A stretch of 45,606 bases of DNA, taken from contig JBHLNT010000015.1 of the NCBI GenBank assembly GCA_048941265.1, positions 1-45,606 on the forward strand, given 5' to 3'. Positions 4,534-40,861 of the stretch are shown here, in pieces. A program made the translations under genes and the position numbers. The notes beneath the pieces were generated by a model. That model did not search any database and was not told the DNA's origin. It worked only from the letters and a program-made list of their open reading frames with translations. The stretch is from Promethearchaeota archaeon. Its GTDB lineage: Archaea > Asgardarchaeota > Lokiarchaeia > Sigyniarchaeales > SOKP01. How positions within the stretch are numbered: position 1 is the first letter of the stretch; the number at the start of each line of letters is the position of its first letter.

Positions 4534-5454
4534 ATGGTTGATTACAAAATTTCGGATTTTATGGATGACTACTTAATTGCGAAAGAAGTTGAAGAAGGAT
4601 GTGCATCTTCAACTGTAAAAGCATATAGATATGACCTTCAAAAATTTATTAATATTGTGGGAGACCAAGAGGTCAATTCGCCTTTAATGAGGCAAAAAGT
4701 TCGGTTATTCTTGAAGAAACTTAAAGATAAAAACTATACCAAAAAAGGTATAGCTCGAAAAATAGCCTCTTTACGTTCTTTTTTTAAGTTTTTAACTTTA
4801 AACGAATTTATTGATAAGAATCCATTGGATGTAATTCGAACTCCAAAGATTAAACTCGAAGAAAGTTTACCCAAATTTTTATCTCTTCAGGATATTGAGG
4901 TTATATTTGAAAAATTAAAAGATAGGACTTTGTTTAATTCGCGAAAGTGCGAGCGATATTATTTAATTATTCGTTTGTTTTATTCAACTATGGCAAGAGT
5001 GAGCGAACTATGTAATATTAAGATACGGGATGTTGATTTTGAAAAAGGATATATCCGATTACGGGGAAAGGGGAACAAAGAGCGGATTGTACCTGTAGAC
5101 CGAGGAACCATTAAAGCTCTTAAAGAATATTTAAGGAATAGGATTTACTACGAAACTGAAGATTATCTTTTGGTTAATACGAGAAATGAAAAACTTAATC
5201 CACGCGTAGTACAAAATGATATAAAAACAATAAAAGAAAAATGCGGATTTCAGGATTCTAAGATCATCACTCCACATGTTTTCAGACATACAGGAGCCAC
5301 ACATCTAAGACGTTCAGGTATGGACATTAGTGAATTACAGGATATTTTGGGACATAGTAGTCCAAACACCACAAGAATTTATGCGAAGAATGATATAACT
5401 AAATTAAAACAGTCTTATAGCCAAATGCATCCATTAAATAACAATAGTTTATAA
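4534..5454 (+). CDS. xerA: XerA-type tyrosine recombinase
   Basis: N-terminal core-binding domain (STVKAYRYDL, ARKIASLRSFFKFL) and intact catalytic residues R (ARVSE), K (GKGNKER), HxxR (HVFRH), H (LGH), Y (TRIY). Confidence 0.9.
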   Translation: MVDYKISDFMDDYLIAKEVEEGCASSTVKAYRYDLQKFINIVGDQEVNSPLMRQKVRLFLKKLKDKNYTKKGIARKIASLRSFFKFLTLNEFIDKNPLDVIRTPKIKLEESLPKFLSLQDIEVIFEKLKDRTLFNSRKCERYYLIIRLFYSTMARVSELCNIKIRDVDFEKGYIRLRGKGNKERIVPVDRGTIKALKEYLRNRIYYETEDYLLVNTRNEKLNPRVVQNDIKTIKEKCGFQDSKIITPHVFRHTGATHLRRSGMDISELQDILGHSSPNTTRIYAKNDITKLKQSYSQMHPLNNNSL

Positions 5455-6682: not shown

Positions 6683-7873
6683 ATGGACGAAGACGCCTTT
6701 AGAAAGGAATTTGGGCAGCAAACTGTCTTTAGACAGGCAGGCTCTCTTGATTTGAGCTATGTCCCTCCTAAATTATATTGTCGTGACGAGGTAATAAAAT
6801 CATTAATTTATAATTATAGAAGAATTTTGGAAGAAAAAGAGCCTCCATCAATTAATTGTCTATTGTTAGGCAAAGGAGGAGTTGGAAAAACTGTTACCGC
6901 GAAATACTTTGGGACTAATTTTAGAAGCATTGCGCTTGAGAAGGATGTGAATCTTTTTATTGAGTATTACAACTGCATAAATTTCAGGAGTAAGTCAAAA
7001 ATCATTAGAGAATTACTTGCCAAGTATACTCACGGTTCTGGAAGAGGATTTTCTGACGATGAAGCATTAAAGTTAATCTTAACCAAATTGATCAATGATG
7101 ATGCCTATATGTTCTTAGTAATTGATGAAGTCCAGATCTTAAAATCTGAAGACGTGTTGGCTTTTTTGGATATCGCGGAAACGTTCGGACATCATAATGC
7201 AAAACTTTCTGTTTTATTAGTTTCAAGAATTAAAGACTGGATGCGAATAGAAACAGAGAGAATTCTTAGCCGATTAAACGAGAAAATTATATTAAAACCT
7301 TATGACTTTGATGATTCCAATTTAATTTTACAATATCGAAGCGAAATAGCGTTTAAAGAAAACGTGGTCAATGATGACATTTTGGCAATGGTTAGCCAAA
7401 TTGTAGTAGAAAACAAGAATATGAGACATGGAATCGAAATTTTAAGAAAATGTGGGTTATATGCAGATAGAGAAGGTTTAAACCGTATATCTGCGGATAT
7501 GGTAAGAGAAGCATCTAATGAAGTATATCCTACTTTTAGGGCAGATATTATCGATCGTTTGAATGAGCAGGAACTGCTTGCACTTTATGGAATTGTAAGA
7601 ACTCTCATCAATAATGATGAGCCATACGCCTTAGTAGATGATGCCTTTGACGAATATGAAGCAATATGTGAAAATTATTCGATTGAACCTCACGTGAAAA
7701 TGAGCTATCGAAAGTATGTCCGCCAATTGAGAGACTTAAAAATAATTGCGTCTAAGACCGTTCGAATTGAAGATGCCCAACGAGGGAGGCATCTCAAAAT
7801 TACCCTTTTAGATATCCCACCAAGAAAATTAGAAGAATTACTTGATGATTTATTTAAAAAAAAATTTGCTTAA
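6683..7873 (+). CDS. cdc6: Orc1/Cdc6 replication initiator (AAA+ plus winged helix)
   Basis: LDLSYVPPKLYCRDE, Walker A GKGGVGKT, Walker B VIDEV, PYD, C-terminal wHTH with RGR. Confidence 0.93.
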   Translation: MDEDAFRKEFGQQTVFRQAGSLDLSYVPPKLYCRDEVIKSLIYNYRRILEEKEPPSINCLLLGKGGVGKTVTAKYFGTNFRSIALEKDVNLFIEYYNCINFRSKSKIIRELLAKYTHGSGRGFSDDEALKLILTKLINDDAYMFLVIDEVQILKSEDVLAFLDIAETFGHHNAKLSVLLVSRIKDWMRIETERILSRLNEKIILKPYDFDDSNLILQYRSEIAFKENVVNDDILAMVSQIVVENKNMRHGIEILRKCGLYADREGLNRISADMVREASNEVYPTFRADIIDRLNEQELLALYGIVRTLINNDEPYALVDDAFDEYEAICENYSIEPHVKMSYRKYVRQLRDLKIIASKTVRIEDAQRGRHLKITLLDIPPRKLEELLDDLFKKKFA

Positions 7874-7992: not shown

Positions 7993-8019
7993 TCCAATTT
8001 TGTAAACAATAAAGGGGGG
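7993..8019 (+). promoter_or_regulatory. ORB-like element with G-string; possible replication origin downstream of cdc6
   Basis: TCCAATTTTGTAAACAATAAAGGGGGG resembles the archaeal ORB (TCCA...AAAC...GGGGG) but with non-canonical spacing; 120 bp from cdc6. Confidence 0.4.
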
Positions 8020-8279
8020 CCATTATAGCAAATAGATATGGATTTTTACGGGGCATAGCAATATTTATACTATTTTGGTTCTGTATTCCCTTTTTTTGGA
8101 TATCTGTAGTGAGGGATTGTGTTTCGGAAATAGAGGAAATTGAGAAAATTTTTTCAGAACGTATTAATAAATTTAAGAATAGAAATATGCAATTTAATAC
8201 CTAATTTAATAAATTGGAATTTTTATCGAAAATTAAAAAAAGGAATTAAAAATGAAAAAAATAAAAATTTTAATTATAT

Positions 8280-11200
8280 CTAATTTTTTAGTATTTCAAT
8301 ATTATCTAGGGCTTGGTTGATTTCGAAAAGTAATCTGTCGGCTAATTCTTGAGAAATTTTTCCCTTATCTAATAAATGATTTATAACGCACTTAGCTTTG
8401 TCTAGTTTAATAGAAGCGCTAGTTAAAAAATGTTTAATATCATGATCCAATGAAATTTTAAAAATTGATATTTCAAGCATCGTAACTGCCCCTCTAATAT
8501 AATTGCTAAGACACCAGCAATAGCACCAATTTAGTTCCTCTTCTATCATATCGTTAAGATTAAGTAAATCAACTTCAATTAATGCTATAGAATATCCTTG
8601 TTCTGTTCCAACTGAATTACCCATCAAAAGAATAATATTATTCCTAATAATGTGAATAAAATTAATCATATATTCTGCATTTTCGTCGTTTATAAAGTTT
8701 AATCTATTTATTAATTCGATTTTAAACTCTGTAATTTTTAAATAGATTTGTGCAATTACATCATAAAAAAGAGCACATTTACATTTTCCATTTTCAATGA
8801 AATAATAAGCTTCTTGTAATCGTTCTTGGGTTTTATCTAATATATGAATAAAAATTCGACTAATACAACTAGAAACATTCGCCTGAATATAATCTTTTAA
8901 TTCATCTATTTGACTATTAACAAAATCATATAAAAAGTCTAAGGTGAATTCAAGCATTGCTGATGCTTCGGAAGTTTCCTCATCTCCCGCCCAATCTTTA
9001 TCGTTATTAGTTGCAAACACGAATAAGGTGTAATTTCCAACCTTCAATGGGAGTATTAATTGATAAGTTATATTTTCCTCAAGTAGACCTGAAAAAATAA
9101 TATTGTCATTGTTATCTAAGATTATATATGTTCCTGTTGCTATACTATCGAGTATTCCATCATTATCTTCAATCTCTAACACCCATCCCAGTCCTTTTTC
9201 TGATATTAATATTTCTGGAGGAGTTATATCATCGTCTAAAATTGTTAATTCAATACTAGCTTCAGACCACATCAACTTTTTAGTAGTATTTTGATAAGCA
9301 ATTAATTGAAGTTTAATTTCTTTAGAAATCTCAGGAACACTATTCGATTTAAGTGCTATTTGCAATTTTAAACTTTTTACTTCATTTTTGCTTAATAAAA
9401 TATAATAGTTTCCTTCTTCATTTTTTTCTAATTCTGTATCATTGCTATAGAAAATGCTATAAGTGAGATAATCTGGTAAATTTGTTATTACAAGAGTGGA
9501 TACGATATAATCATAGTTATCTTCTAAGATTTGCCCTACTAAATTTTCAATATTGATTGAAAAATTAACATTTGTACCATCATATAAAACCTTCTTTTCC
9601 ACATCTACTAAAGTAAGCTGAATTTGATTTTTCTGTAATGCATATCGTTCAAAACTCTTCGCGTAATAATAAATCGATAAAAATTCGTCTCGATATGTGT
9701 TAAAAAATAAGTCTAGAGAAGAATCCTTTATTATATTAGCTAATAAACTTGCATTATAAAATTCTTCATTTAAAATTAGGTTTGTCAACGTATTTAGTTG
9801 GTCTAAAAGTGTATTGATTTCTAGTTCAATTTCTGGTCCTGATAAGGGAGATAATCCTAATTTACCTACTGAGATATATTGATTGGTCTTTATATTCTCT
9901 TCAAGTAAACTTAGGCATAATTCATCGATAGACTCAAAAATATGGGAACTTCTCATTGCCATTTCATTTAATAACTCCATGTCTTTATGTTCTATAGAAT
10001 TAATAGCGATTTCTTTATTCTGCATATCTTTTAAGACATTAGTCTCAATATTTCTAGTTATTTCAAATTCTGTAACAAAATCTTTATATTTAGGATCAAA
10101 TTCGAACTCAAATTCTGGAGATGTTAAAATATCCATATCAATATCAGAAAAATATAAGGGATTATTATTTGTCTCAGATTCAATAGAATTCATAAAAGAA
10201 ACGTAATAATATTCTAACTGTTTTGATGTCTCGATCATTTCATATGAAAATTCTTGAATGTTTTGAGTTTGAAAAGAGCATGCTGAAAAATTATTGCTAG
10301 CGAAGGCAGTGTTATATCTATTATTCGCAATTATAAGATTAGTAGTTAATCTTTCTAAATCTAATAATGAATCTATTATTGCCTTTCCTTGTATTGCAAT
10401 TGAATTATGAGCCTGAATTTCCTCATAAAGTTCTGGAAAACGTTCATATGGATAAGAAACCACATCAACATTAGGTTTTTCATAATAATTATTATCGGGA
10501 GGATCTTTTCCGTTCACAATGTCTAATATTGCGGTGTCCTTATATATATCAGTTGCTACGCCTATACCGGTAAGAAGACATAGTAGAAATGTCGGGCAAT
10601 AATCCATAGAAGAAACAGAAAACATTAAATCACTAAACATTTCATAACTGATAAAATTTCTTAGAGCATCTCTCTGAGAATCATCAGGTATTAATCCAAT
10701 TCCAGTATAATATATTAAATCCTCTGAATCAACTAATTCCCAATCTTCTGGATCCATTATTAACATTTGTCGTACATTAGTCCATTTATTATATGGATTG
10801 CCTCGAATATAATGATAATCATCCACATCCTCATTTAAATGCCACCACCATTTAGAAGGGTCATTCCAATATTTTTCTGCGCCATAAGCTTCTAAAATAC
10901 CGAAAAAAAGCCCCATAAATCCTCCTAAATTTGAAATTTTTGCCCCTAAAATATCTGCGCTATACACTAAAGAAAGCCAATCTTCAATATCTTTACTTTC
11001 ATTTTCCATTGTTTTGATAAAATCTAATGCTGTAGGAGGTAAGGGAATACCCAGAGCAGCAAACACATATTGCGCAAAAATTCTAGAATTCAAAAATTGT
11101 GCTTCCAATTCTGTAGCATCCTTAATTCCTTTTGTCCAATCATCCCAAATAACGCCAGAAGTATCCAAAATTTCTAAAGTTTTAATAGATATTTTACATA

Positions 11201-12749
11201 TTTCTATACTTTTAGTCTCGCCAGGATTTATCTCAACCCAAAAATGAAAGTCAAAGTCATCTTTTTTTAAATCTACTTTGGTATCATATGTGAATATTGC
11301 ATCCATGCTTTCTGCTAGATTCATGGGATCAATTAAATCACCATCATATATGTCTTTCTCTTCAGATTGGTTATATCTATAGATATTATCGAGATTTTGT
11401 AATAATGTAAAATCCAATCCCATCATTTTTGGGATTAATCCTCCAAATTTAACTCTTATAGGATATTCTTCCGTATTTTTAAATTCCATTGATATTGTGA
11501 TTTCGTTCTTTTGGTGATGCTCCTTAAAAGAATAAACATTGGTAGAATTATATTCATCACAATTTAGATATATACCTTTTTTTTTATCCAACCCCTCAAT
11601 TTTTACGGTTGCTAAATCCCCATAAAGAGGTAATGACCATGGAAGACGTCTATTTAATTTAAATTGAAAACAAACTTCACTACTATAATCATTGGGCCTA
11701 TCATGATCGTTATCCCTAAAACAAACACCGAATTCTAAAAGATAAAAATTTGGATATGTATCATAAACATCAGATAAATAAAATTCATAAGTACCAATTT
11801 TTCCTCCTTCGTGTTCATTAGTAGGTACAAATAAAAACCAATTGTTTTCTGAATACTTGCCCCTCCATTGTGCACCTGAAGGATCCTTTGCTTCAATAGC
11901 GATTTTCATATAGGTGCTATCACTATAACTAATATCGGATACATCATAGATCACATTATTTTCCAGTTCAGTTTTTTCGTTCCAGTGCCCAGAAGGGTAG
12001 ATCCAAGTTCTTATTTCTGGAGGTGTAACATCGTCATCCGTAATGTCATAGCAATTCCATATATAATCTTCTACAGGATATTCTACTCCAAATAAAGTAC
12101 ACCAATGAACTAATTCCGCATCAGCATTATACTCTATATAACCCGTATCTATATATATTGGATCAAGCTCAATAAATGTCCATTTATCATCGAAGACGTT
12201 CTTATCACATAGCCATGGAAAAAAAACTTCTTTCCAAACCCTGTCTTTGAAATTATCTTTACTTAAATAGAGCTCAGCGCAATAGATACATTCTAAACCC
12301 TTTATTCCAAATGAAATTTCAAATTTTATTTGCTCATCATTCGCATAAATTGGATCAATATAACCATCTGTAGTTGCTGTTAATTTCGTTCTAGCAATTT
12401 CATAACTTTCTTCTTTCGTTATTGTACCATTATATAAACCCCAATGTAGAATGGTAGCAATTTGAATTTTATTCTGAATTTGAGGATCATTAATTATTTC
12501 ATCGTTTAGTTGTCCATCTCTATAACCTAAATCAATAGTATATTGTTTCCATTCATTATACCCCCAATTTTCTTTTTCATCTTCTATAACTGAAAATTGA
12601 CTATTTTCAGATGAATCCACATCATCTGAGGAAATGGGACTCTCATTTTGTTTATTTGAATTATTTTTAATTGTCGTTGAATTTAGATATAAATTCGGGA
12701 GAAAAAGAATTAAAAGTATACCAAAAACTATTGTACTTTTACTTTTCAA
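8280..12749 (-). CDS. Large (1489 aa) secreted/surface hypothetical protein
   Basis: N-terminal signal-like helix, TTG start after AGGCGA SD-like site, twice-repeated DDD(V/I)TPPEI...(D/N)NDxDxxxD modules, central hydrophobic helices. Confidence 0.8.
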   Translation of the reverse strand: MKSKSTIVFGILLILFLPNLYLNSTTIKNNSNKQNESPISSDDVDSSENSQFSVIEDEKENWGYNEWKQYTIDLGYRDGQLNDEIINDPQIQNKIQIATILHWGLYNGTITKEESYEIARTKLTATTDGYIDPIYANDEQIKFEISFGIKGLECIYCAELYLSKDNFKDRVWKEVFFPWLCDKNVFDDKWTFIELDPIYIDTGYIEYNADAELVHWCTLFGVEYPVEDYIWNCYDITDDDVTPPEIRTWIYPSGHWNEKTELENNVIYDVSDISYSDSTYMKIAIEAKDPSGAQWRGKYSENNWFLFVPTNEHEGGKIGTYEFYLSDVYDTYPNFYLLEFGVCFRDNDHDRPNDYSSEVCFQFKLNRRLPWSLPLYGDLATVKIEGLDKKKGIYLNCDEYNSTNVYSFKEHHQKNEITISMEFKNTEEYPIRVKFGGLIPKMMGLDFTLLQNLDNIYRYNQSEEKDIYDGDLIDPMNLAESMDAIFTYDTKVDLKKDDFDFHFWVEINPGETKSIEICKISIKTLEILDTSGVIWDDWTKGIKDATELEAQFLNSRIFAQYVFAALGIPLPPTALDFIKTMENESKDIEDWLSLVYSADILGAKISNLGGFMGLFFGILEAYGAEKYWNDPSKWWWHLNEDVDDYHYIRGNPYNKWTNVRQMLIMDPEDWELVDSEDLIYYTGIGLIPDDSQRDALRNFISYEMFSDLMFSVSSMDYCPTFLLCLLTGIGVATDIYKDTAILDIVNGKDPPDNNYYEKPNVDVVSYPYERFPELYEEIQAHNSIAIQGKAIIDSLLDLERLTTNLIIANNRYNTAFASNNFSACSFQTQNIQEFSYEMIETSKQLEYYYVSFMNSIESETNNNPLYFSDIDMDILTSPEFEFEFDPKYKDFVTEFEITRNIETNVLKDMQNKEIAINSIEHKDMELLNEMAMRSSHIFESIDELCLSLLEENIKTNQYISVGKLGLSPLSGPEIELEINTLLDQLNTLTNLILNEEFYNASLLANIIKDSSLDLFFNTYRDEFLSIYYYAKSFERYALQKNQIQLTLVDVEKKVLYDGTNVNFSINIENLVGQILEDNYDYIVSTLVITNLPDYLTYSIFYSNDTELEKNEEGNYYILLSKNEVKSLKLQIALKSNSVPEISKEIKLQLIAYQNTTKKLMWSEASIELTILDDDITPPEILISEKGLGWVLEIEDNDGILDSIATGTYIILDNNDNIIFSGLLEENITYQLILPLKVGNYTLFVFATNNDKDWAGDEETSEASAMLEFTLDFLYDFVNSQIDELKDYIQANVSSCISRIFIHILDKTQERLQEAYYFIENGKCKCALFYDVIAQIYLKITEFKIELINRLNFINDENAEYMINFIHIIRNNIILLMGNSVGTEQGYSIALIEVDLLNLNDMIEEELNWCYCWCLSNYIRGAVTMLEISIFKISLDHDIKHFLTSASIKLDKAKCVINHLLDKGKISQELADRLLFEINQALDNIEILKN

Positions 12750-12872
12750 ATTAATTTCGCCTATTTTTTAAGAAATCATTTTTAATAAAATTGGATTAAT
12801 TAATATTTATTAAAATCGATTATTTAACGTTTGTGGTAAATAACCTTTACATCTTTTTGTTTTGCAGCATTC

Positions 12873-12919
12873 TTTCACTCTATTGGATTTTTCTGCTACT
12901 TTTTCATAAAATAATATAA
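12873..12919. repeat. Direct repeat A, right copy
   Basis: Matches 7912-7958 at 43/47 positions. Confidence 0.9.
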
Positions 12920-13169
12920 TTATTATTTTATTGAAATATCAAATTCTCTTTTTGGCAAAAGACTTTCTGATCCAATAAATGCGGTGATGACCATTTCAAA
13001 GGATCCAAATAAAAGTGAATTTGAAACAATTTGCTCAATTATAAAGGAATGGGCAAATAATAGTTATAACAAAAATCTCATTCCCGAGGAAATAGTGAGT
13101 TCCTTATTAAAAAAATTAATAGACGCGGGAGATCCAATCGCCAAACAAGCTTTTGAAGCCAAAAATTAA
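12915..13169 (+). pseudogene. Probable 5'-truncated remnant of a Lokiarchaeia-expanded domain (EFxxxCSxxxxW...LLKKLxxAGDPIAK)
   Basis: Motif recalled from Loki proteins; frame is open from 12915 with no good start; begins at the edge of repeat A. Confidence 0.5.
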
Positions 13170-13295
13170 ATTATTGTAATTATCGTTATGATATATTGAT
13201 TTTTAAATCTAAAGTTCTGAAAGATTATACAATGTCGCCGAAGAATACTAACTAACTTTAAGGAGAAAGTTCAGATATTAAAAATCGTGATTATA

Positions 13296-13526
13296 TTAAT
13301 ATTTCTCTTTCTCTGCTTTTGATTTCGAGTACCATTCAAGCCAATCCTTTCTACGCGCTTTTTTCTGGGAGTAATCATCGTCAGAATTAATGTTTTGTGT
13401 CCTTATCTTTTTCCAGTAATCATCTAATTCTGATCGCTTCAAAGACAATCCGCAAGAACTGCAAATCAGTGATTTAGTTGCTGATTCGAATTCCATCTTC
13501 CCTGCACATTCTGGACAGCGAGCCAT
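13296..13526 (-). CDS. Small zinc-ribbon protein
   Basis: CPEC...CSSC, ATG start, charged helical tail. Confidence 0.8.
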   Translation of the reverse strand: MARCPECAGKMEFESATKSLICSSCGLSLKRSELDDYWKKIRTQNINSDDDYSQKKARRKDWLEWYSKSKAEKEKY

Positions 13527-13585
13527 ACGTTTTCCTATTCAAACTTTTAATTTTTTTAAATTATATTATAGTATTTAGAATAAAT

Positions 13586-13607
13586 TAACGCTAAAATAAT
13601 TATTGAA
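13586..13607. repeat. Direct repeat B, left copy (TAACGCTAAAATAATTATTGAA)
   Basis: 22/22 identical to 13920-13941. Confidence 0.9.
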
Positions 13608-13710
13608 TTAATTGCATAATTGACATAAAATCCAAAATTCGGATTATTATTTTCCGAATCATTTAAGATTAATAGTTTTTGTTAAAAATATCAGAATCTT
13701 ATTTCCGATA

Positions 13711-13728
13711 AAAGAGAAATTATATATA
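13711..13728 (+). promoter_or_regulatory. BRE/TATA promoter of the candidate ncRNA
   Basis: Purine-rich AAAGAGAAA followed by TTATATATA, ending about 23 nt before the GC-rich block at 13751. Confidence 0.7.
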
Positions 13729-13750
13729 TTTGAATATCTATTATTTATAT

Positions 13751-13871
13751 GTAGTTCGCGACGACTGCGGTTGCTTGAGCATAAGAACCCCGGTCAAGGT
13801 TATTGCTAGGGCTCTCCTAGACGGACCTCCGCGATAACAGGTAATTCTGTTCTCAAGCCAGAATTACCACA
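13751..13871 (+). ncRNA. Unclassified ~120-nt structured RNA (three-way junction, 3' hairpin, loop-loop pairing)
   Basis: Sharp GC-rich island with no listed ORF; stems 13756-60/13830-34, 13763-72/13786-95, 13797-800/13825-28, 13806-10/13816-20, 13840-49/13859-68; upstream TATA and downstream T tracts. Confidence 0.7.
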
Positions 13872-13885
13872 AAAAAAGCTATATC

Positions 13886-13908
13886 TTTGTTTTGTCACTA
13901 ATTTTTTT
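13886..13908 (+). terminator. Possible oligo(T) terminator of the ncRNA
   Basis: TTTGTTTTG and TTTTTTT tracts just downstream of the structured block. Confidence 0.4.
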
Positions 13909-13919
13909 CGACAGTCTCA

Positions 13920-13941
13920 TAACGCTAAAATAATTATTGAA
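13920..13941. repeat. Direct repeat B, right copy
   Basis: 22/22 identical to 13586-13607. Confidence 0.9.
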
Positions 13942-14146
13942 AAAATAAATTTGCATTATTAATAATTTCAAGTAAACATTCTACTTATATATTTTAAAAT
14001 CGAAAAATTGTAAAGTGAGAACTATTGACATCTAAGGTATACTTTTTTACAGCTCGGGCTCACACCCGTCAAGAGAGTATGAGTAAAATCAAGGGACCAT
14101 TAGCCCTTAAGCATTTAGGTATTGAAGAAAAGATACCATAATACAT

Positions 14147-14386
14147 TTAATAGATGGTGAAGAATGTGGATCGATCTCAGTTCCATATGTATTACGTATG
14201 ATTTCGTCAACAGGATTAGATATCGGGAAAGATGGGCTCTCACCTGTAACTGATGATTACAAAGCACCATTCAAATTTCCCGGAACAATTAAAAGAGTCC
14301 ATGTAGATTTACCTCGGTACAGACCAGCTTCACAAGATCGTGAGGATGAGAAAGTCCGATTCCGCACTGAAATGTCCAAACAATAA
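14147..14386 (+). pseudogene. C-terminal remnant of an arylsulfatase
   Basis: LIDGEECG...GLDIGKDGLSPVTDDYKAPFKFPGTIKRVHVDL...RFRTEMSKQ resembles arylsulfatase C-termini; similarity extends upstream of the ATG at 14198; in-frame stop at 14123. Confidence 0.7.
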
Positions 14387-14503
14387 TGAAATCTTAAAAA
14401 AAAGATTGGGTTAGAAAAAGACAAGATAGGAGTATTAAACCTAAAGCCTATTTTAATAAAAAAAAAAAGAATTTGAAAGGTTAAAATTTTCCTTAAACTT
14501 ACT

Positions 14504-14818
14504 TTATTCTTTTAGTTTTTTAGCTAATTTCATAAGAGGGGGGATAACTTTAACTACTGGAGATGCAGGAGTCGTTTTAACAAACTTGAAAATACCTGGT
14601 TTAGTGAGTCTCCACATTGCAAATGCCTCTATAATTTGTTCCTCAGTATCTGCTTCTAATATTAATACACCCCAAAAATCTGAGTTACTCACATACCAAG
14701 CGATTTCTTTAGTGCCTTCTACTGGCCATAATTTCTTACTTACAATTTTTTGGGCAATTTCAGCTAATTCTGCTGGATCGAAATCAGGATTGAGTTCCCA
14801 ATATGTTATAAAAATCAT
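14504..14818 (-). CDS. Small hypothetical protein (DUF3303-like alpha/beta fold)
   Basis: ATG with AGGTGA SD; FITYWEL...W..S.FWGVLILEADTEE pattern. Confidence 0.7.
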   Translation of the reverse strand: MIFITYWELNPDFDPAELAEIAQKIVSKKLWPVEGTKEIAWYVSNSDFWGVLILEADTEEQIIEAFAMWRLTKPGIFKFVKTTPASPVVKVIPPLMKLAKKLKE

Positions 14819-15102
14819 TTAATCACCTTTTTATTAATTATCAATAATAAGCTTCGGATTTCGAAGTAATTAAATACAATATGGAAGAAAATTTAAATAT
14901 TTACACTTTTGTATAGAAACTATTAAGTTTTGATTTTAACTAATTTAATTGTAATTCTTATAGCAAATTGAAAAAATTTATTAAAATTTAAACTTTGAAA
15001 TTAAAATATTATATAGAAAAATTACAAATAAGAACATTCATAATATAAAGAGAGGCGATTTTAATTCCCGAAAGCAGTAGCATATTAAATGACATTAATA
15101 AG

Positions 15103-16038
15103 GTGTTTATTCCATGTAGAACTGTTTTAGAAATGGAGGCAATAATCTCTTTATATCTATTAAATTCTAATTATGATAAAATTAAGGATATACCAGATTC
15201 CCGACCATCTAGTGATCGGCTAATAGATATATTAGCTGTAAGGGATCAACAGTTGTTCGTAGATATTATAGATTTTTTTATCAATCGTGCAATTCCAAAA
15301 GTAAAACCCGTAGTTATGTATGCTCGAGAACACCATGAAAGATTTAGAATGGGAAACGTTGCTCCATATGCGAAAACACGAGTTTGTGTCTATCTCGCTT
15401 TACATAGATTAAAATTGAAATTCTTAATAATTAAAAATTTCATAGATACATTTAAATCTAATAATTATAACTTAGATTCTTTCTATGAAAACGAGATAGA
15501 GGAGGATATGACTTTTCTGGCGGCGCTTTCAAAAGATTATTATAAAAAAAATAAAATGAATCTTAGGTTAATGATACAGAAGAGAAGAGTTTCAGAAAGA
15601 GTACAAAAGTTACTAAATGATAAAGACGCCATCACCAGTGAAAAATTATTCAAAATGGCTACTTTCAAAGTTTATCTTGAAAGAGCTAATATAATAAAAT
15701 TTATCATGAGAGAAATTAAAGCATCCATTTTTGTGTGCAAATTAATGTTTGCTAAAATGGACCTTCATAACCCTTTTTCTTTTACAGAAGAAACTGCTTT
15801 GGATTTAGAAGAGATTATGATTAGTAATGATTTTATCCCAGAATTACTACCTGCTATTTCAAAAAGTCTTCGGACAAATAATATCACTCAACTTGAGGAG
15901 TGTATTAATGCATTTGACTTCTTAATGGATAAAGTTTTAAATGGGATTAATAAAGCTATAGAAATTACTTCTGGGGGTCAATTCCAGATTGGGTTATACG
16001 AGACGATATATGATACCGGAAATATTTTTGCATTTTAA
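15103..16038 (+). CDS. Hypothetical alpha-helical protein
   Basis: 311-aa ORF in AT-rich DNA; no recognised motif; start may be upstream. Confidence 0.7.
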   Translation: MFIPCRTVLEMEAIISLYLLNSNYDKIKDIPDSRPSSDRLIDILAVRDQQLFVDIIDFFINRAIPKVKPVVMYAREHHERFRMGNVAPYAKTRVCVYLALHRLKLKFLIIKNFIDTFKSNNYNLDSFYENEIEEDMTFLAALSKDYYKKNKMNLRLMIQKRRVSERVQKLLNDKDAITSEKLFKMATFKVYLERANIIKFIMREIKASIFVCKLMFAKMDLHNPFSFTEETALDLEEIMISNDFIPELLPAISKSLRTNNITQLEECINAFDFLMDKVLNGINKAIEITSGGQFQIGLYETIYDTGNIFAF

Positions 16039-31521: not shown

Positions 31522-33504
31522 TTGAGAAAAACAAATTTAAATAAAAAATTTTTACTCTTATTACTAATTTCTATACTACTGATGGCGATTAATAGAATTC
31601 CAAATGCAATTTACCATCCATCCATTCAGCCTCAGGATGATTTAATTACATTTAAAAGAAAGGAACCTCAAATATCTTATTCAACCAATTGGACTCCCAA
31701 TGGTACAGGAGTATGTACATATACCCTTGCTCAATGGTATCCTCAAATATGCAGCGATGATGCGGGTGGCGCGATTATAGCATGGAGAGATTTTAGAGAT
31801 TTAATATCTACTGGGACAGATATTTATGCTCAACGGGTTGATCCTATTGGATCTAGAAAATGGACGTGGAATGGTAAGCCTATATGCACGGCTGATGATC
31901 ACCAGACAAACCTTCAAATATGCAGTGATGGAGACGGGGGTGCGGTTATAGCATGGGAGGATTATAGAGGAAGTGATATAGATATTTACGCTCAGAAGGT
32001 CGATTCAGATGGCAACCCCCTGTGGATGTCTAATGGTAATGTCATTTGTAATGCAACTTCCGATCAAGAGAACCTCCAATTATGCAGTGATGGAGATGGG
32101 GGCGCGATTATAGCATGGGAGGATTATAGAGGAAGTGATATGGATATTTATGCTCAATGGATAAATTCAAGTGGGCATACAAAATGGGGAGGCAACGGCA
32201 CAATTATATGCAATTCGAACAATAACCAAAAAAACGCTCAAATATGCAGTGATGGAGAGTTTAGCGCGATTATAACATGGGAGGATTATAGAGGAAGTGA
32301 TATAGACATTTATGCACAAAGAATTAATAAAACTGGAGGTATGGAGTGGGCAACTAATGGTACTGCAGTATGCACATACACAAATAATCAAACAAATCCT
32401 CAATTATGTAGTGATGGGGCCAGTGGTGCGATCATTACCTGGAAAGATTTTCGAAGTCAACCTTATTATGACGTTTATGCTCAAAGGATTAATGCAACAG
32501 GAGGTAGAGAGTGGACCACTTCTGGTGAGATAATATGCAATGAAAATTGGAATCAAGAGAATATTCAAATATGTGGCGATGATGCGGGTGGTGCGATTAT
32601 AGTATGGGATGATATGAGAAATATATTTTCTACAGGTAAAGATATTTATGCCCTACGAATTAATTCGGAAGGGAGTACAGATTGGACTGAAAATGGTGAA
32701 GAAGTATGTGTGGCAGAAGGTACTCAAAGTATGCCTCAACTAACTAGTGATGAGGGAAGCGGTGCGATTATTACATGGTTAAACAGTAGTGGATCAGACT
32801 CTGATATTTATGCTCAGAGAATCAGCTCAACCGGAGTTACTAAATGGGCTTTTAATGGTGAGATAATTAGCAACGAATACAATAGCCAAGAAGAACCCCG
32901 AATATGTAAAGATGGATCTGGAGGTGCAATAATTACATGGCAAAATAACTCAGGGAGTACAACATTGATGGATATATTAGCTCAGCGAATGAAAAACGAT
33001 ATTCCTGTATCAATCAATCCAGCACCTGTAAATACGACCCTCAGTGGATCTCATAAAATTAACTGGAGATTATCTGATGACGGTGGTGGAGGCCAATATC
33101 GCGTTTGGGCGAACAATACCGCTGGGGATATTTATCTATGGATAGACTGGACATCATGGGTGGATAAAAATGATACTAATCTAGGTGTTCCAATTAACCG
33201 TATTGCGACAGGATCTTTCAACTATACGATTGAGTATTATGACGACCAGAATCAGTTTGGTATGAACGGCTCAGTAATCGTTACAATAACAAGGGACCCG
33301 ATAATTGTTGTTGGAGAGGGCGACAACGATGACGACGACGACAAATCTCAAGACACTTTTATAGACGACTTAATAAGGGAAGGACTTATTATTCCTATAG
33401 TTGGAGGTATCGTATCTGCGGTAATATCCGGCTTTATCGGAATTTTATTTTGGAAATATCAGAAAAAAAAAGAAAAAGAGGAAAAGCGAACCTCAGGAGT
33501 TTAA
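31522..33504 (+). CDS. Membrane-anchored surface protein with eight ~56-aa beta-propeller-like repeats
   Basis: Signal helix, 8 copies of (QICSDGxGGAIIxWxDxR...DIYAQR), C-terminal TM and basic tail. Confidence 0.85.
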   Translation: MRKTNLNKKFLLLLLISILLMAINRIPNAIYHPSIQPQDDLITFKRKEPQISYSTNWTPNGTGVCTYTLAQWYPQICSDDAGGAIIAWRDFRDLISTGTDIYAQRVDPIGSRKWTWNGKPICTADDHQTNLQICSDGDGGAVIAWEDYRGSDIDIYAQKVDSDGNPLWMSNGNVICNATSDQENLQLCSDGDGGAIIAWEDYRGSDMDIYAQWINSSGHTKWGGNGTIICNSNNNQKNAQICSDGEFSAIITWEDYRGSDIDIYAQRINKTGGMEWATNGTAVCTYTNNQTNPQLCSDGASGAIITWKDFRSQPYYDVYAQRINATGGREWTTSGEIICNENWNQENIQICGDDAGGAIIVWDDMRNIFSTGKDIYALRINSEGSTDWTENGEEVCVAEGTQSMPQLTSDEGSGAIITWLNSSGSDSDIYAQRISSTGVTKWAFNGEIISNEYNSQEEPRICKDGSGGAIITWQNNSGSTTLMDILAQRMKNDIPVSINPAPVNTTLSGSHKINWRLSDDGGGGQYRVWANNTAGDIYLWIDWTSWVDKNDTNLGVPINRIATGSFNYTIEYYDDQNQFGMNGSVIVTITRDPIIVVGEGDNDDDDDKSQDTFIDDLIREGLIIPIVGGIVSAVISGFIGILFWKYQKKKEKEEKRTSGV

Positions 33505-37630: not shown

Positions 37631-40600
37631 TTATATTTTAATCTCACTATCACACACCCAACACTTTTCTCCTTTTTTTTTCAAAGCTTTAGCACACCTA
37701 ACGCAATAAAATGCATTACATTTTGGGCATAAGTAATTTGCACCTTCAATTAAACCTTTATGGACGATACATAGAATTTTTCTATCCTCGATATCGACTT
37801 CTGATTCAGTCTTTTTCAATTCCTCTTTTTCTATTTCTGATGGTACTGCTGTAGTTGTTAATGTTGGGGTTGTTGTTGCTGATTTCTTCATTTTATGAAA
37901 TTCTTTTTCTTTTAGAACTTTTAGGGGTTTTATAAGGACCTTACTTTCTAAAGGTTTCAGTTTTGATTTTTTTCCTATTGAGCCACTCTGTATTTTTTTT
38001 TTCCTAATTTTTGCAGAATAAACCACTCCAGAAAGTATGACTACAGCGATGGTTATTAGGATAATAATCATTATTATAAAAATCTCGGTTTCGAACAATA
38101 TTTTATCTTTTCCATCATCTCCGCCATTAGAACTTCCATCCATTTCTTGTTTTGAACTTAACTCTTTTATTGGAATAAATTTACTTCTTAAATACATAAT
38201 TTCAGTATCAGTACCCCATACTCCATCAGTGTCATCTTGCCAGACTATATGAAGGTTATTAGAGCCATCCACAGCAATCTCAGGATAAAAGCTATCTTCT
38301 GTATTCCAGCCCCATGCATTATTATATCCATCAGAAATAACCGTAGCGTTTGACCATCCAACTCCTATAGTGTAATTCGCATACATAATCTCAATATCAA
38401 AACTCCATATACCATTTGAATTATCTTCCCAAACTACATGAAGATTATTAGAGCCATCCACAACGATCTTAGGGTTATAACTATCTTCTGTATTCCAGCC
38501 CCATGCATTATTATATCCATCAGAAATAACCGTAGCGTTTGACCATCCAACTCCTATGGTGTAATTCGCATACATAATCTCAACATCTGAAGCACTACCT
38601 CCCCATATCCCCTCCGTTTCGTCTTGCCAAACAATGTGAAGGTTGTTAGAGCCATCCACAGCAATGTCAGGACTCCCACTGCTACCGAAATTCCAGCCCC
38701 ATGCATTATTGTAACCATCAGAAATCACTGTAGCATTTGACCAACCTACTCCAGTAATATATTTAACATACATAATTTCAGTATCAGTACCCCATACTCC
38801 ATCAGTATAATCTTGCCAGACTACGTGAATGTGATTTAAACCATCTACAGCTATTTTGGGTTGCCAACTGTTCCTGTCATTCCAATATTTAGCATTATAT
38901 CCGTCAGAAATCACTGTAGCATTTGACCACTGACCTGTTGCTGCTGTGTATTTAACATACATAATTTCATCATCATTAACGCTATCAGACCATATCCCCT
39001 CAGTTTCATCTTGCCAAACTACGTGAAGATTATTAAAACCATCTATTGCAATATCAGGATTTTGACTTGATTCATTATTCCACCCCCAATCTCCACCATA
39101 TCCATCAGAAATTACAGTAGCATTTGACCATCCTACTCCTTCTGTGTATTTCGCATACATAATTTCGGTATCAGTACCCCATATACCATCGGTACCGTCT
39201 TGCCAGACAGCATGAAGAGTGTTAGAGCCATCTACAGCAATCTCAGGGCTACAGCTCTCATCATTATTCCAATCCCAAATATCTTGAAATCCATCAGAAA
39301 TTACAGATGCATTTTTAAATTCTTTAATAAACTGATCTAACAGTGTAACTTTACAGTACATGATTTCAGAATCTGAAAAGTCTTCCCTCCATATACCATC
39401 TGTTCTATCTTGCCAAACTATGTGAAGATTGTTAGCACCATTAATTGCTATATCAGGATACAAACTATTTCCTGAATTCCAATATTCACCTTCATGTCCA
39501 TCAGAAATCACAATTACGTTCGACCATCCTAATCCTTCAGTGTAGTTAGCGTACATTATTTCAGAATCTATACCCCATTTACCACTTGTATAATCATGCC
39601 ATACAACATGAAAGTCGTTCGAGCCATCAACAGCTATTTGAGGATTATCGCTGGAAGCAGTATTCCAGTATTCATCATTATATCCATCAGAAATAATGGT
39701 AGCGTTAGACCATTGATCTATTGCTGGTATGTAATAAGCATACATAATCTCACTATCTGAAGTACCTCCTCCCCATATACCCGGAGTGTCATCTTGCCAG
39801 ACTACATGAGGATTATTTAAGCCATCCAAGATAATATCAGGATTAAAACTTTTCCCTGTATTCCAAAATCCATTATCATATCCATCGGAAATAACAGTTG
39901 CATTGGACCATTGATTTGTAGCAACTGTAAAATTAGTATACATAATTTCAATATCAGTATTACCACCCCATATTCCTTCTGTATTATCTTCCCAAACTAT
40001 GTGAAGATTATTAGCACCATCTACAGCAACTACTGGATGTTCGCTATTTCCAGTATTCCAGTATTCACCCTTATATCCATCAGAAATCACTGTAGCGTTA
40101 GACCAACCTGCTCCATTAGTATAGTTTACATACATAATTTCTGTATCCGTACCCCATTTACCATTAGTATCATCTTGCCATACTACGTGAAGGTTATTAA
40201 CACCATCTACAGCAATTTGTGGATGTTTGCTATTTCCAGTATTCCAGTATTCTCCCTTATATCCATCAGAAATCACTGTAGCATTAGACCAACCTGCTCC
40301 ATTAGTATAGTTTACATACATAATCTCGAAATCTTGATCACCACCACCCCATATACCTTCTGTATTATCATACCATATGACATGAAGGTTATTAGCACCA
40401 TCTATTGCAATATTTGGAAATACACTAATTCCCGTATTCCAAAATTCGCCTTTGTAACCATCAGAAATTACAGTAGCATTTGACCATCCTACTCCTTCTG
40501 TGTAATTTGCATACATAATTTCGGGATCTGTAAGTCCTCCCTCACCCCATATACCAGGTGTTTGATCTTGCCAGACTGCATGGATAATATTAGACCCATC

Positions 40601-40861
40601 TATAGCAATCTCAGGATAAAAACTTTCTTTAGTATTCCAATATTCATTATTATATCCATCAGAAATCACAGAAACGTTAGAATAATTAATAATTGATGAG
40701 CGAATGCTTGGAAATTCTCTATCAGGAGTAATTGAAATAACTTGTTCAGATGATTCTATTTTAGGAACTGAATAATTAGATATTAAGAGAGCTGTTATAA
40801 GATTTCCTAAAATTAATAATATAAAAATTAATGAAATTTTTCTTATTAACATCTTTTTCAT
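37631..40861 (-). CDS. Receptor-like membrane protein: 13 beta-propeller-like repeats (7+6), TM helix, cytoplasmic RING-like zinc finger
   Basis: Signal helix; repeats SNATVISDGY...P.IAVDG.NNLH.VWQD.T.G.WG.D.EIMY; TM; CIVH...CPKC...CVRC...CWVC. Confidence 0.88.
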   Translation of the reverse strand: MKKMLIRKISLIFILLILGNLITALLISNYSVPKIESSEQVISITPDREFPSIRSSIINYSNVSVISDGYNNEYWNTKESFYPEIAIDGSNIIHAVWQDQTPGIWGEGGLTDPEIMYANYTEGVGWSNATVISDGYKGEFWNTGISVFPNIAIDGANNLHVIWYDNTEGIWGGGDQDFEIMYVNYTNGAGWSNATVISDGYKGEYWNTGNSKHPQIAVDGVNNLHVVWQDDTNGKWGTDTEIMYVNYTNGAGWSNATVISDGYKGEYWNTGNSEHPVVAVDGANNLHIVWEDNTEGIWGGNTDIEIMYTNFTVATNQWSNATVISDGYDNGFWNTGKSFNPDIILDGLNNPHVVWQDDTPGIWGGGTSDSEIMYAYYIPAIDQWSNATIISDGYNDEYWNTASSDNPQIAVDGSNDFHVVWHDYTSGKWGIDSEIMYANYTEGLGWSNVIVISDGHEGEYWNSGNSLYPDIAINGANNLHIVWQDRTDGIWREDFSDSEIMYCKVTLLDQFIKEFKNASVISDGFQDIWDWNNDESCSPEIAVDGSNTLHAVWQDGTDGIWGTDTEIMYAKYTEGVGWSNATVISDGYGGDWGWNNESSQNPDIAIDGFNNLHVVWQDETEGIWSDSVNDDEIMYVKYTAATGQWSNATVISDGYNAKYWNDRNSWQPKIAVDGLNHIHVVWQDYTDGVWGTDTEIMYVKYITGVGWSNATVISDGYNNAWGWNFGSSGSPDIAVDGSNNLHIVWQDETEGIWGGSASDVEIMYANYTIGVGWSNATVISDGYNNAWGWNTEDSYNPKIVVDGSNNLHVVWEDNSNGIWSFDIEIMYANYTIGVGWSNATVISDGYNNAWGWNTEDSFYPEIAVDGSNNLHIVWQDDTDGVWGTDTEIMYLRSKFIPIKELSSKQEMDGSSNGGDDGKDKILFETEIFIIMIIILITIAVVILSGVVYSAKIRKKKIQSGSIGKKSKLKPLESKVLIKPLKVLKEKEFHKMKKSATTTPTLTTTAVPSEIEKEELKKTESEVDIEDRKILCIVHKGLIEGANYLCPKCNAFYCVRCAKALKKKGEKCWVCDSEIKI

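Follow-up and report, generated by a model that had tools for sequence, protein, structure and literature searches.

GC-rich islands in the AT-rich genomes of archaea offer a composition-based way of finding noncoding RNA genes. The genes found in this way have sharp GC boundaries, a strong fold, a TATA-like box and an oligo-T run, and as a rule they are conserved among relatives. As for RNA architecture, the pRNA of phi29-type phages is about 120 nt long, is built around a three-way junction, has complementary loops that link molecules to one another, and is expressed from its own promoter on a mobile genome. The Alu domain of the SRP RNA is likewise a small three-way junction, with a tertiary pairing between two junction hairpin loops, and SINE-type insertions are derived from it. 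At the level of DNA, MITEs, casposons and other transposons that duplicate their target can leave a short noncoding insert between exact target duplications; in most IS families these are 2-14 bp long, shorter than the 22 bp described below. Archaeal elements flanked by att sites integrate by means of tyrosine recombinases and are bounded by identical direct repeats of some tens of bp.

The locus examined here resembles each of these systems in part. It lies in a window of 45,606 nt (the whole stretch of DNA that was analysed, contig JBHLNT010000015.1 of a Promethearchaeota archaeon), in which an earlier note had singled out the island at 13751-13871 as a stand-alone, possibly new Asgard noncoding RNA or ribozyme. 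In its sharp GC boundaries, strong fold, TATA-like box and oligo-T run, the island is like the archaeal noncoding RNA genes found by composition; in contrast with those, it is absent from all relatives. What is new here is that the island lies on a 312-bp lineage-specific insert bracketed by a duplicated 22-nt motif.

With the phi29 pRNA the island shares a length of about 120 nt, a three-way junction and two mutually complementary loops. However, the complementarity spans 4 nt in the pRNA and 7 nt in the island, the host is an archaeon, and no packaging or other viral genes were found near the island. Rfam presumably includes a pRNA family, and the island matched no Rfam model; the likeness is a resemblance only. 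The comparison with the SRP Alu domain and SINEs extends to a three-way junction with loop pairing, an insert of about 300 bp, a long target duplication and a run of A residues after the RNA. Nonetheless, the SRP Alu domain pairs two junction hairpins, whereas the island would pair P2 with a separate 3′ hairpin, there is no SRP model match, and the A7 run of the insert lies 42 nt from the repeat rather than adjacent to it. Furthermore, the insert carries 143 nt of upstream DNA with a putative promoter, which points to transfer at the level of DNA and not of RNA.

Compared with a MITE or an IS-derived element, the insert has the target-site duplication (22 nt), but it lacks terminal inverted repeats and is present in a single copy. 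The duplication is also longer than the 15 bp reported for casposase in a casposon review (PMC9939771). The att-flanked elements are similar in having identical direct repeats at both ends and one specific, conserved site. However, the target here is not a tRNA gene, and the insert contains no integrase; the nearest XerC/D-like gene (4534-5454) lies 8 kb away, by Orc1/Cdc6. Since the 312 bp hold no gene of any kind, an att-flanked element could be present only as a deletion remnant. The portions available to us of the literature on Asgard mobile elements with target duplications and on Asgard noncoding RNAs contain nothing comparable.

Results

The island occupies the spacer between a Zn-ribbon gene and the remains of a divergently oriented gene. 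The features of the locus are given below; the BRE/TATA-like element, the palindrome and the terminator-like tail were read from the sequence.

13296-13526, minus strand: TFIIB-type Zn-ribbon gene, intact, 76 aa (Pfam Zn_Ribbon_TF, E 7e-6)
13586-13607: direct repeat, copy 1 (TAACGCTAAAATAATTATTGAA); its left flank aligns with the spacer of relatives
13608-13919, plus strand: lineage-specific 312-bp insert between the repeat copies; an alignment gap in relatives
13637-13659: 7-bp palindrome, ATTCGGA-N9-TCCGAAT, in the AT-rich left part of the insert
13710-13728, plus strand: purine-rich stretch and TTATATATA, a BRE/TATA-like element 22 nt upstream of the island
13751-13871, plus strand: GC-rich island, predicted RNA (GC profile, ViennaRNA fold)
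13871-13908, plus strand: A7 followed by T3/T4 and T7 tracts, an oligo-T terminator-like tail
13920-13941: direct repeat, copy 2; its right flank aligns with the spacer of relatives
14025-14141, plus strand: DUF362/4Fe-4S remnant, first 38 codons (intact, 410 aa, in relative G001)
14126-14386, plus strand: sulfatase remnant, last ~87 codons (79% identity by tblastx to 10021-10281 of the G001 locus, L078)

Two exact copies of the 22-nt motif are present in this genome, starting at 13586 and 13920 and thus 334 nt apart, and only one copy is found in the spacers of the relatives G001, G003 and G008. In alignment A3 of these spacers, one gap of ~336 columns lies opposite the insert in all three relatives; the outer flanks of the repeats align with the relatives, and the inner 312 nt align with nothing. 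The island is not ancestral; it sits on an insert that is present only in this lineage. That insert, which includes the island together with the TATA-like box, the AT-rich DNA leading up to that box and the T tracts, is found once in its own genome by BLASTN, nhmmer and tblastx, and likewise by the covariance model described below. It contains no ORF above 35 aa. There are no terminal inverted repeats at 13608-13919, and elsewhere only weak, AT-rich pairs that are 71-76% complementary. A tandem duplicate of the spacer together with the start of the gene was considered and rejected, as no similarity extends past the 22-27 nt repeat. The repeat around the island is unusual: of the 28 noncoding GC islands of the genome, 1 has an exact flanking repeat of at least 14 nt, and when 450 nt to either side of 3000 random 120-nt segments were examined, only 0.27% had a repeat of 22 nt or more. 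Isolated repeat pairs also occur elsewhere in the genome, for example C89:4963/5653, C123:7286/7670 and C284:24643/25461.

Because a contig from an independent study (record 10 of DNA run X3) spans 13637-13980 with 0 differences, the right junction of the insert is not an assembly artefact. Contigs of DNA runs X2 and X3 also cover the island with 0 differences; as contigs from other samples show no difference anywhere in the stretch, they carry no information on selection. Among the contigs listed from four DNA runs, where cover is thin, none has an empty site that skips 13608-13941. One X3 contig joins 13560 to 14830 by way of 35 other letters (at an 80% threshold); a relative whose genes are ordered differently may be its source.

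Throughout the genus the divergent spacer carries a conserved form of the 22-nt motif (roughly TAAWGCTAAAATAWTTATTGRA; 13575-13613 and 13920-13946 of the window; L042-L049), which is probably a regulatory site common to the two divergent genes. In four metagenome runs the duplicated motif attracts contigs of other organisms as well. A near-palindrome with 14-nt arms, 86% complementary, covers the junction between repeat copy 1 and the insert (13598-13621); it could be a clue to the insertion or an AT-rich chance match.

The Zn-ribbon gene next to the spacer is conserved and single-copy in 36 of 41 genomes, its own included, with amino acid identities of 91% in G003 and 88% in G001. In the six nearest relatives examined (G003, G001, G008, G002, G005 and G009) an intact gene of ~400 aa begins 120-160 nt upstream of it on the opposite strand; the spacers of G001, G003 and G008 measure 150-200 nt. 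This divergent gene in G001 encodes a 410-aa DUF362/4Fe-4S protein and is followed by one for a 755-aa sulfatase (Pfam Sulfatase). Here a deletion of ~3.26 kb relative to G001 (L078 6762-10020) has fused the DUF362 remnant out of frame to the sulfatase remnant. The observation in the earlier note that no intact gene lies downstream of the island was therefore correct, since the DUF362 gene is reduced to its first 38 codons (14025-14141).

Other segments of the locus also differ from those of the relatives. A segment of about 5.3 kb (8005-13290) separates Orc1/Cdc6 from the Zn-ribbon gene and contains a 61-aa ORF and a gene of 1489 aa with only a weak Y_Y_Y match; it is absent from this place in G001 and G003, which have a DUF3303 gene or nothing there. 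Likewise, 14401-15033 is not at this place in G001 or G003; it holds a DUF3303 paralogue (14504-14818, minus strand), and the paralogue of G001, with 38% identity by tblastx, lies on the other side of the Zn-ribbon gene. The deletion and the two differing segments show that the locus has been repeatedly reshuffled in this lineage, and together with the dead downstream genes these segments indicate that non-functional DNA is tolerated there. Farther to the left, a XerC/D-type recombinase gene (4534-5454) lies near the Orc1/Cdc6 gene (6683-7873), and their closeness suggests that a replication origin may be near. To the right, 31914-32285 and 38192-40650 are rich in exact, collinear repeats spaced 162-198 nt apart or at multiples of this distance; they are repeat-domain coding sequence inside ORFs of 660 aa and 1076 aa.

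The island itself is as sharply bounded as the earlier note had described it. The GC profile gives 53% in 13750-13849, compared with 0.15-0.20 at 13550-13749 and 0.17-0.26 at 13850-13999. The island from 13751 to 13871 likewise has 53% GC in a genome of 30.5%, and the coding regions in the profiled interval 12500-15500, at 0.29-0.42, lie well below it. Its predicted helices, all on the plus strand, are the following.

13756-60/13830-34, plus strand: P1, 5 pairs
13763-72/13786-95, plus strand: P2, 9 of 10 pairs, with a C.C mismatch and the pair U13766-G13792
13797-801/13824-28 and 13806-10/13816-20, plus strand: P3, 5 + 5 pairs around an internal loop
13840-49/13859-68, plus strand: P4 hairpin, 10 of 10 pairs, uninterrupted

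These helices had been drawn by hand, and the minimum free energy (MFE) structure calculated with ViennaRNA, which is also the centroid, reproduces them: a three-way junction followed by a perfect 10-bp hairpin. All pairs of P1, the outer part of P2 (P2a), P3 and P4 have probabilities of at least 0.77. The sole departure from the hand fold is a set of four weak pairs inside the P2 loop (13774-77/13782-85), and freeing the loop of these costs 2.1 kcal/mol. The plus strand has an MFE of -42.4 kcal/mol (z -3.28), and equally good folding was obtained in 1 of 200 dinucleotide shuffles; the minus strand folds more weakly, at -40.2 kcal/mol (z -2.30). The plus-strand fold contains three G.U pairs (U13766-G13792, G13777-U13782 and U13801-G13824), the first of which had earlier been taken to favour that strand. 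The folding models point the same way, and the plus strand is the favoured one for a predicted RNA.

The loop of P2 (GCUUGAG, 13773-79) is, as had been noticed before, the exact reverse complement of the loop of P4 (CUCAAGC, 13852-58); beyond these seven nucleotides there is one mismatch and then a further A-U pair. Seven contiguous pairs between the loops arise in 0.3% of two-loop shuffles and in 0.1% of random loops with the composition of the island. Complementarity of any 7-mer anywhere in the island arises in 24% of whole-island shuffles, so that the probability of about 0.001-0.003 is meaningful only given the two loops, and it is post hoc. In energetic terms, the 7-bp duplex between the loops is worth -8.9 kcal/mol, as against the 2.1 kcal/mol for freeing the P2 loop. 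From this we infer a 7-bp kissing interaction between P2 and P4.

It is also worth considering the signals on either side of the island. The box TTATATATA lies at 13720-13728, behind the purine-rich AAAAGAGAAA and 22 nt ahead of 13751, and fits TTTAWATA with 1 mismatch at -32/-30. However, 18% of random genome positions whose upstream 60 nt are equally AT-rich have a TATA-like 8-mer at -36 to -24, and the promoter call for the island is weak. On the 3′ side there are an A7 tract (13871-13877), T3/T4 tracts (13886-13893) and a T7 tract (13902-13908), and the A7 is able to pair with the first U tract (inverted-repeat pair I10). Thus the strings that the earlier note had read as a promoter and T tracts are where it had placed them, but the box loses some of its force against this background. 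In the left part of the insert the 7-bp palindrome, together with a third TTTCCGA at 13702-13708, may be a site for a regulator.

No known RNA family accounts for the island. A comparison of the whole window with Rfam 15 (4227 families) gave no match at the gathering thresholds. With E values up to 10 allowed, a search of 13500-14150 gave no match on the island, and one of 13740-13900 returned only U7, on the minus strand, with E 4.8. Nothing points to the ribozyme that the earlier note had suggested, as no known ribozyme model matches the island.

Homologues were sought in several collections. With BLASTN the best match of the island outside its own copy in 60 relatives has an E value of 0.0115 and consists of short pieces only, and in 399 other genomes of the phylum there is none at E up to 0.01. 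A covariance model (R1), built from the single sequence with 34 pairs, found nothing outside its own copy in 60 genomes of the family. Two weak matches to R1 among 150 genomes of the phylum have alignments full of non-canonical pairs and deletions, and were set aside as chance. The pattern of the two complementary loops does not occur in the viral contigs; in species-representative genomes it has 12 matches, 9 of them in unrelated bacteria, and the other 3 were rejected as homologues because they are one coding gene of three Archaeoglobaceae MAGs. Searches for exact 17-22-mers of the island gave 0 and 0 matches in metagenome contigs, and 0, 71, 1 and 2 in viral contigs. The 71 fall into ~15 groups of related coding contexts, one of which shares 22 nt with the island, reads LLEHKNP, and lies inside an apparent phage polymerase gene; none of these fits R1 beyond the word itself (the best reaches 14 bits, E 1), and they are not regarded as homologues. 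BLASTN against phages and plasmids yielded only AT-rich chance matches outside the island.

This scarcity is not a matter of sensitivity. Two other GC islands of the same genome served as positive controls: for C189:14541-14675 BLASTN gave full-length matches of 90-92% identity in G001 and G007 and partial ones in G008 and G011, and for C92:5186-5306 matches of 81% in G001 and G003. Since a search that detects both of these does not detect the island in the relatives, its absence there is real, and it agrees with the empty site seen in their spacers. Homologues, which the earlier note had proposed to collect, are missing from every genome and contig collection searched, and with the orthologous spacer of the nearest relatives lacking the island, an RNA of the whole lineage or a conserved new class is no longer tenable. 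Of the stand-alone new noncoding RNA proposed in the earlier note, the likeness to an RNA gene and the lack of a known family remain; against it is the finding of a single-genome orphan on a lineage-specific insert.

Discussion

The explanation we favour, to which we give an even chance, is that the insert was acquired horizontally as a self-contained small-RNA unit. In this scenario, the 312 bp that entered the divergent-promoter spacer by the Zn-ribbon gene in this lineage only, duplicating the conserved 22-nt spacer motif, would be foreign or ectopic DNA. The insert would have three parts: ~140 nt of AT-rich DNA that leads up to and includes a BRE/TATA-like box, the transcript, and the oligo-T tracts. 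The TATA-like box would drive synthesis of a transcript of ~120-155 nt from near 13750, and the archaeal RNA polymerase would stop at the oligo-T tracts that follow the island. The RNA would fold into a tight three-way junction (P1-P3) followed by the 10-bp hairpin P4, and kissing of the P2 and P4 loops may dock P4 onto the junction domain or link two molecules head to tail. Because all relatives lack the island, such an RNA would be an accessory and not a housekeeping RNA, and most plausibly it is a passenger or remnant of a virus, a plasmid or another mobile element. Candidate routes of insertion are transposition with a staggered cut, att-type recombination followed by internal deletion, and capture during break repair.

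It is tempting to go further and regard the insert as a mobile cassette that carries an RNA gene and comes from an archaeal virus or plasmid not yet described, encoding a new class of RNA of ~120-150 nt that compacts or oligomerizes by means of its 7-bp loops, and inserted by a mechanism (22 bp duplicated, no terminal inverted repeats) that is itself undescribed. We consider this larger proposal doubtful, and equally doubtful the analogy that it invites with packaging or copy-control RNAs. Nonetheless, if the RNA is made and folds as predicted, the locus would be a rare case of a structured RNA gene observed shortly after it had entered an archaeal chromosome horizontally, while sister species still preserve the empty site, and the 22-bp duplication without inverted repeats would point to a route of insertion not yet described for archaea. 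For now the island is a candidate accessory RNA and not a conserved new RNA family, as an orphan of a single genome cannot support one; as it stands, its practical value is cautionary.

The most serious competitor of a small-RNA unit is that the insert is inert captured DNA, a 312-bp filler or the remnant of a degraded element, in which the fold is a fossil or partly fortuitous and any transcript is functionless. We judge this the less probable of the two, and still a realistic prospect. It is consistent with an insert that is lineage-specific, single-copy and without homologues, that adjoins two dead genes and other rearrangements, and whose promoter has the 18% background given above; moreover, unlike the two control islands, which are conserved at 81-92% in relatives, the island does not show what is usual for a functional cellular RNA. 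On the other hand, neutral DNA of 53% GC should decay in a genome of 30.5% GC, and yet all 34 modelled pairs are intact (the C.C mismatch inside P2 was left out of this number). The island also begins at promoter distance from the TATA-like box and ends at T tracts, the fold has a z of -3.3, and the match between the loops has a probability of ~0.002. These four points, however, would suit an inert insertion just as well if it were recent.

An improbable alternative is that the island is the decayed remains of a protein-coding gene whose GC content was higher. Other gene fragments are present at the locus, and 13751-13834 is an open stretch of 28 codons; the earlier note had itself named a decayed coding sequence as what would undo the RNA call. 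Nevertheless, all three plus-strand frames are closed within the 121 nt of the island, tblastx of the island finds nothing in its own genome or in the G001 and G003 loci, and four stop-free segments (three on the plus strand, one on the minus strand) have no match in Pfam, where segments of 21-30 aa give low power. The GC content lies far above that of the local coding sequence, and the stems are perfect. On such features the island looks like an RNA gene and not like coding sequence.

Another possibility is that the island belongs to a known class and was missed, whether as a tRNA broken by an intron, as an H/ACA or C/D guide RNA, or as a fragment of one of these. Rfam and ARAGORN miss many RNA genes in this genome (only 2 of 20 islands matched tRNA, and ~10 look intron-bearing), and an ACA follows each of the two structural domains (13837-39 and 13869-71). 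Even so, ARAGORN finds no tRNA in the window, with introns allowed at the 80% threshold still none, and at 60-70% thresholds gives only mismatched, implausible tRNA models on the island. A tRNA forms a cloverleaf that has an acceptor stem of 7 bp and a T arm (GTTCRAWYC); neither a T-arm nor a D-arm sequence is seen on either strand of the island. In an archaeal H/ACA sRNA a pseudouridylation pocket interrupts the hairpin, which also contains a K-turn or K-loop and has ACA after it. In the island, P4 is an uninterrupted 10-bp stem without such a pocket, the first domain is a three-way junction, and no tandem G.A K-turn was seen by eye; an H/ACA sRNA was rejected. Box C/D sRNAs carry a C box (RUGAUGA) close to the 5′ end and a D box (CUGA) close to the 3′ end. 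With 1 mismatch allowed, no C box (RTGATGA) lies in 13424-13916 on either strand among the matches listed, which are the part of 363 matches in the window that, sorted by position, extends past this interval. Furthermore, a guide RNA or tRNA with a housekeeping role should also be present in relatives. The searches with Rfam and ARAGORN and for C boxes thus agree with the earlier reading that the island fits no tRNA, 5S, SRP, C/D or hammerhead pattern, and a missed known class, already largely refuted, is very unlikely.

Least probable of all is a cis-acting 5′ leader or riboswitch brought before the DUF362-sulfatase genes, a rejected candidate that gains something from the position of the island 154 nt upstream of the DUF362 remnant on the same strand, but that must contend with intervening T tracts and a second TATA-like box (13985-13995), with downstream genes that are dead here (DUF362 being cut after 38 codons) and that relatives run without the island, and with the lack of any match to a riboswitch model.

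It is informative to view the island in light of the other GC islands of this genome. There are 58 that are sharply bounded, and 28 lie outside open frames of at least 100 aa; ARAGORN identifies 8 of these 28 as tRNAs. The 19 others (the island itself omitted), together with one inside an open frame, were compared with Rfam, which gave 2 matches to tRNA and 2 weak ones to the tRNA-like part of tmRNA. By eye, ~10 appear to be tRNA genes whose D or T loop is interrupted by introns, one is 5S-like, two could not be named, and the rest are short coding stretches. A GC island without an Rfam match is therefore common in this genome. At the same time, GC islands here are mostly RNA genes, which raises the prior probability that the island encodes an RNA, at least in its donor.

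Several of these islands merit mention for their own sake. The tRNA introns at non-canonical positions, in the D loop or the T loop, are found in L080, L082, L085-L089, L091, L095 and L096; on the 5.0-Mb genome ARAGORN reports 10 tRNAs without and 27 with the intron search, and Rfam misses most of the intron-bearing ones. A 5S-rRNA-like stretch was recognized by eye at C237:27961-28051 (L093); it has no Rfam match at E up to 0.01 and may be a diverged or interrupted 5S gene. Finally, the two control islands, C189:14541-14675 (L090) and C92:5186-5306 (L084), have no Rfam match either, and with identities of 81-92% in relatives they are better starting points for the discovery of noncoding RNAs than the island at 13751-13871.
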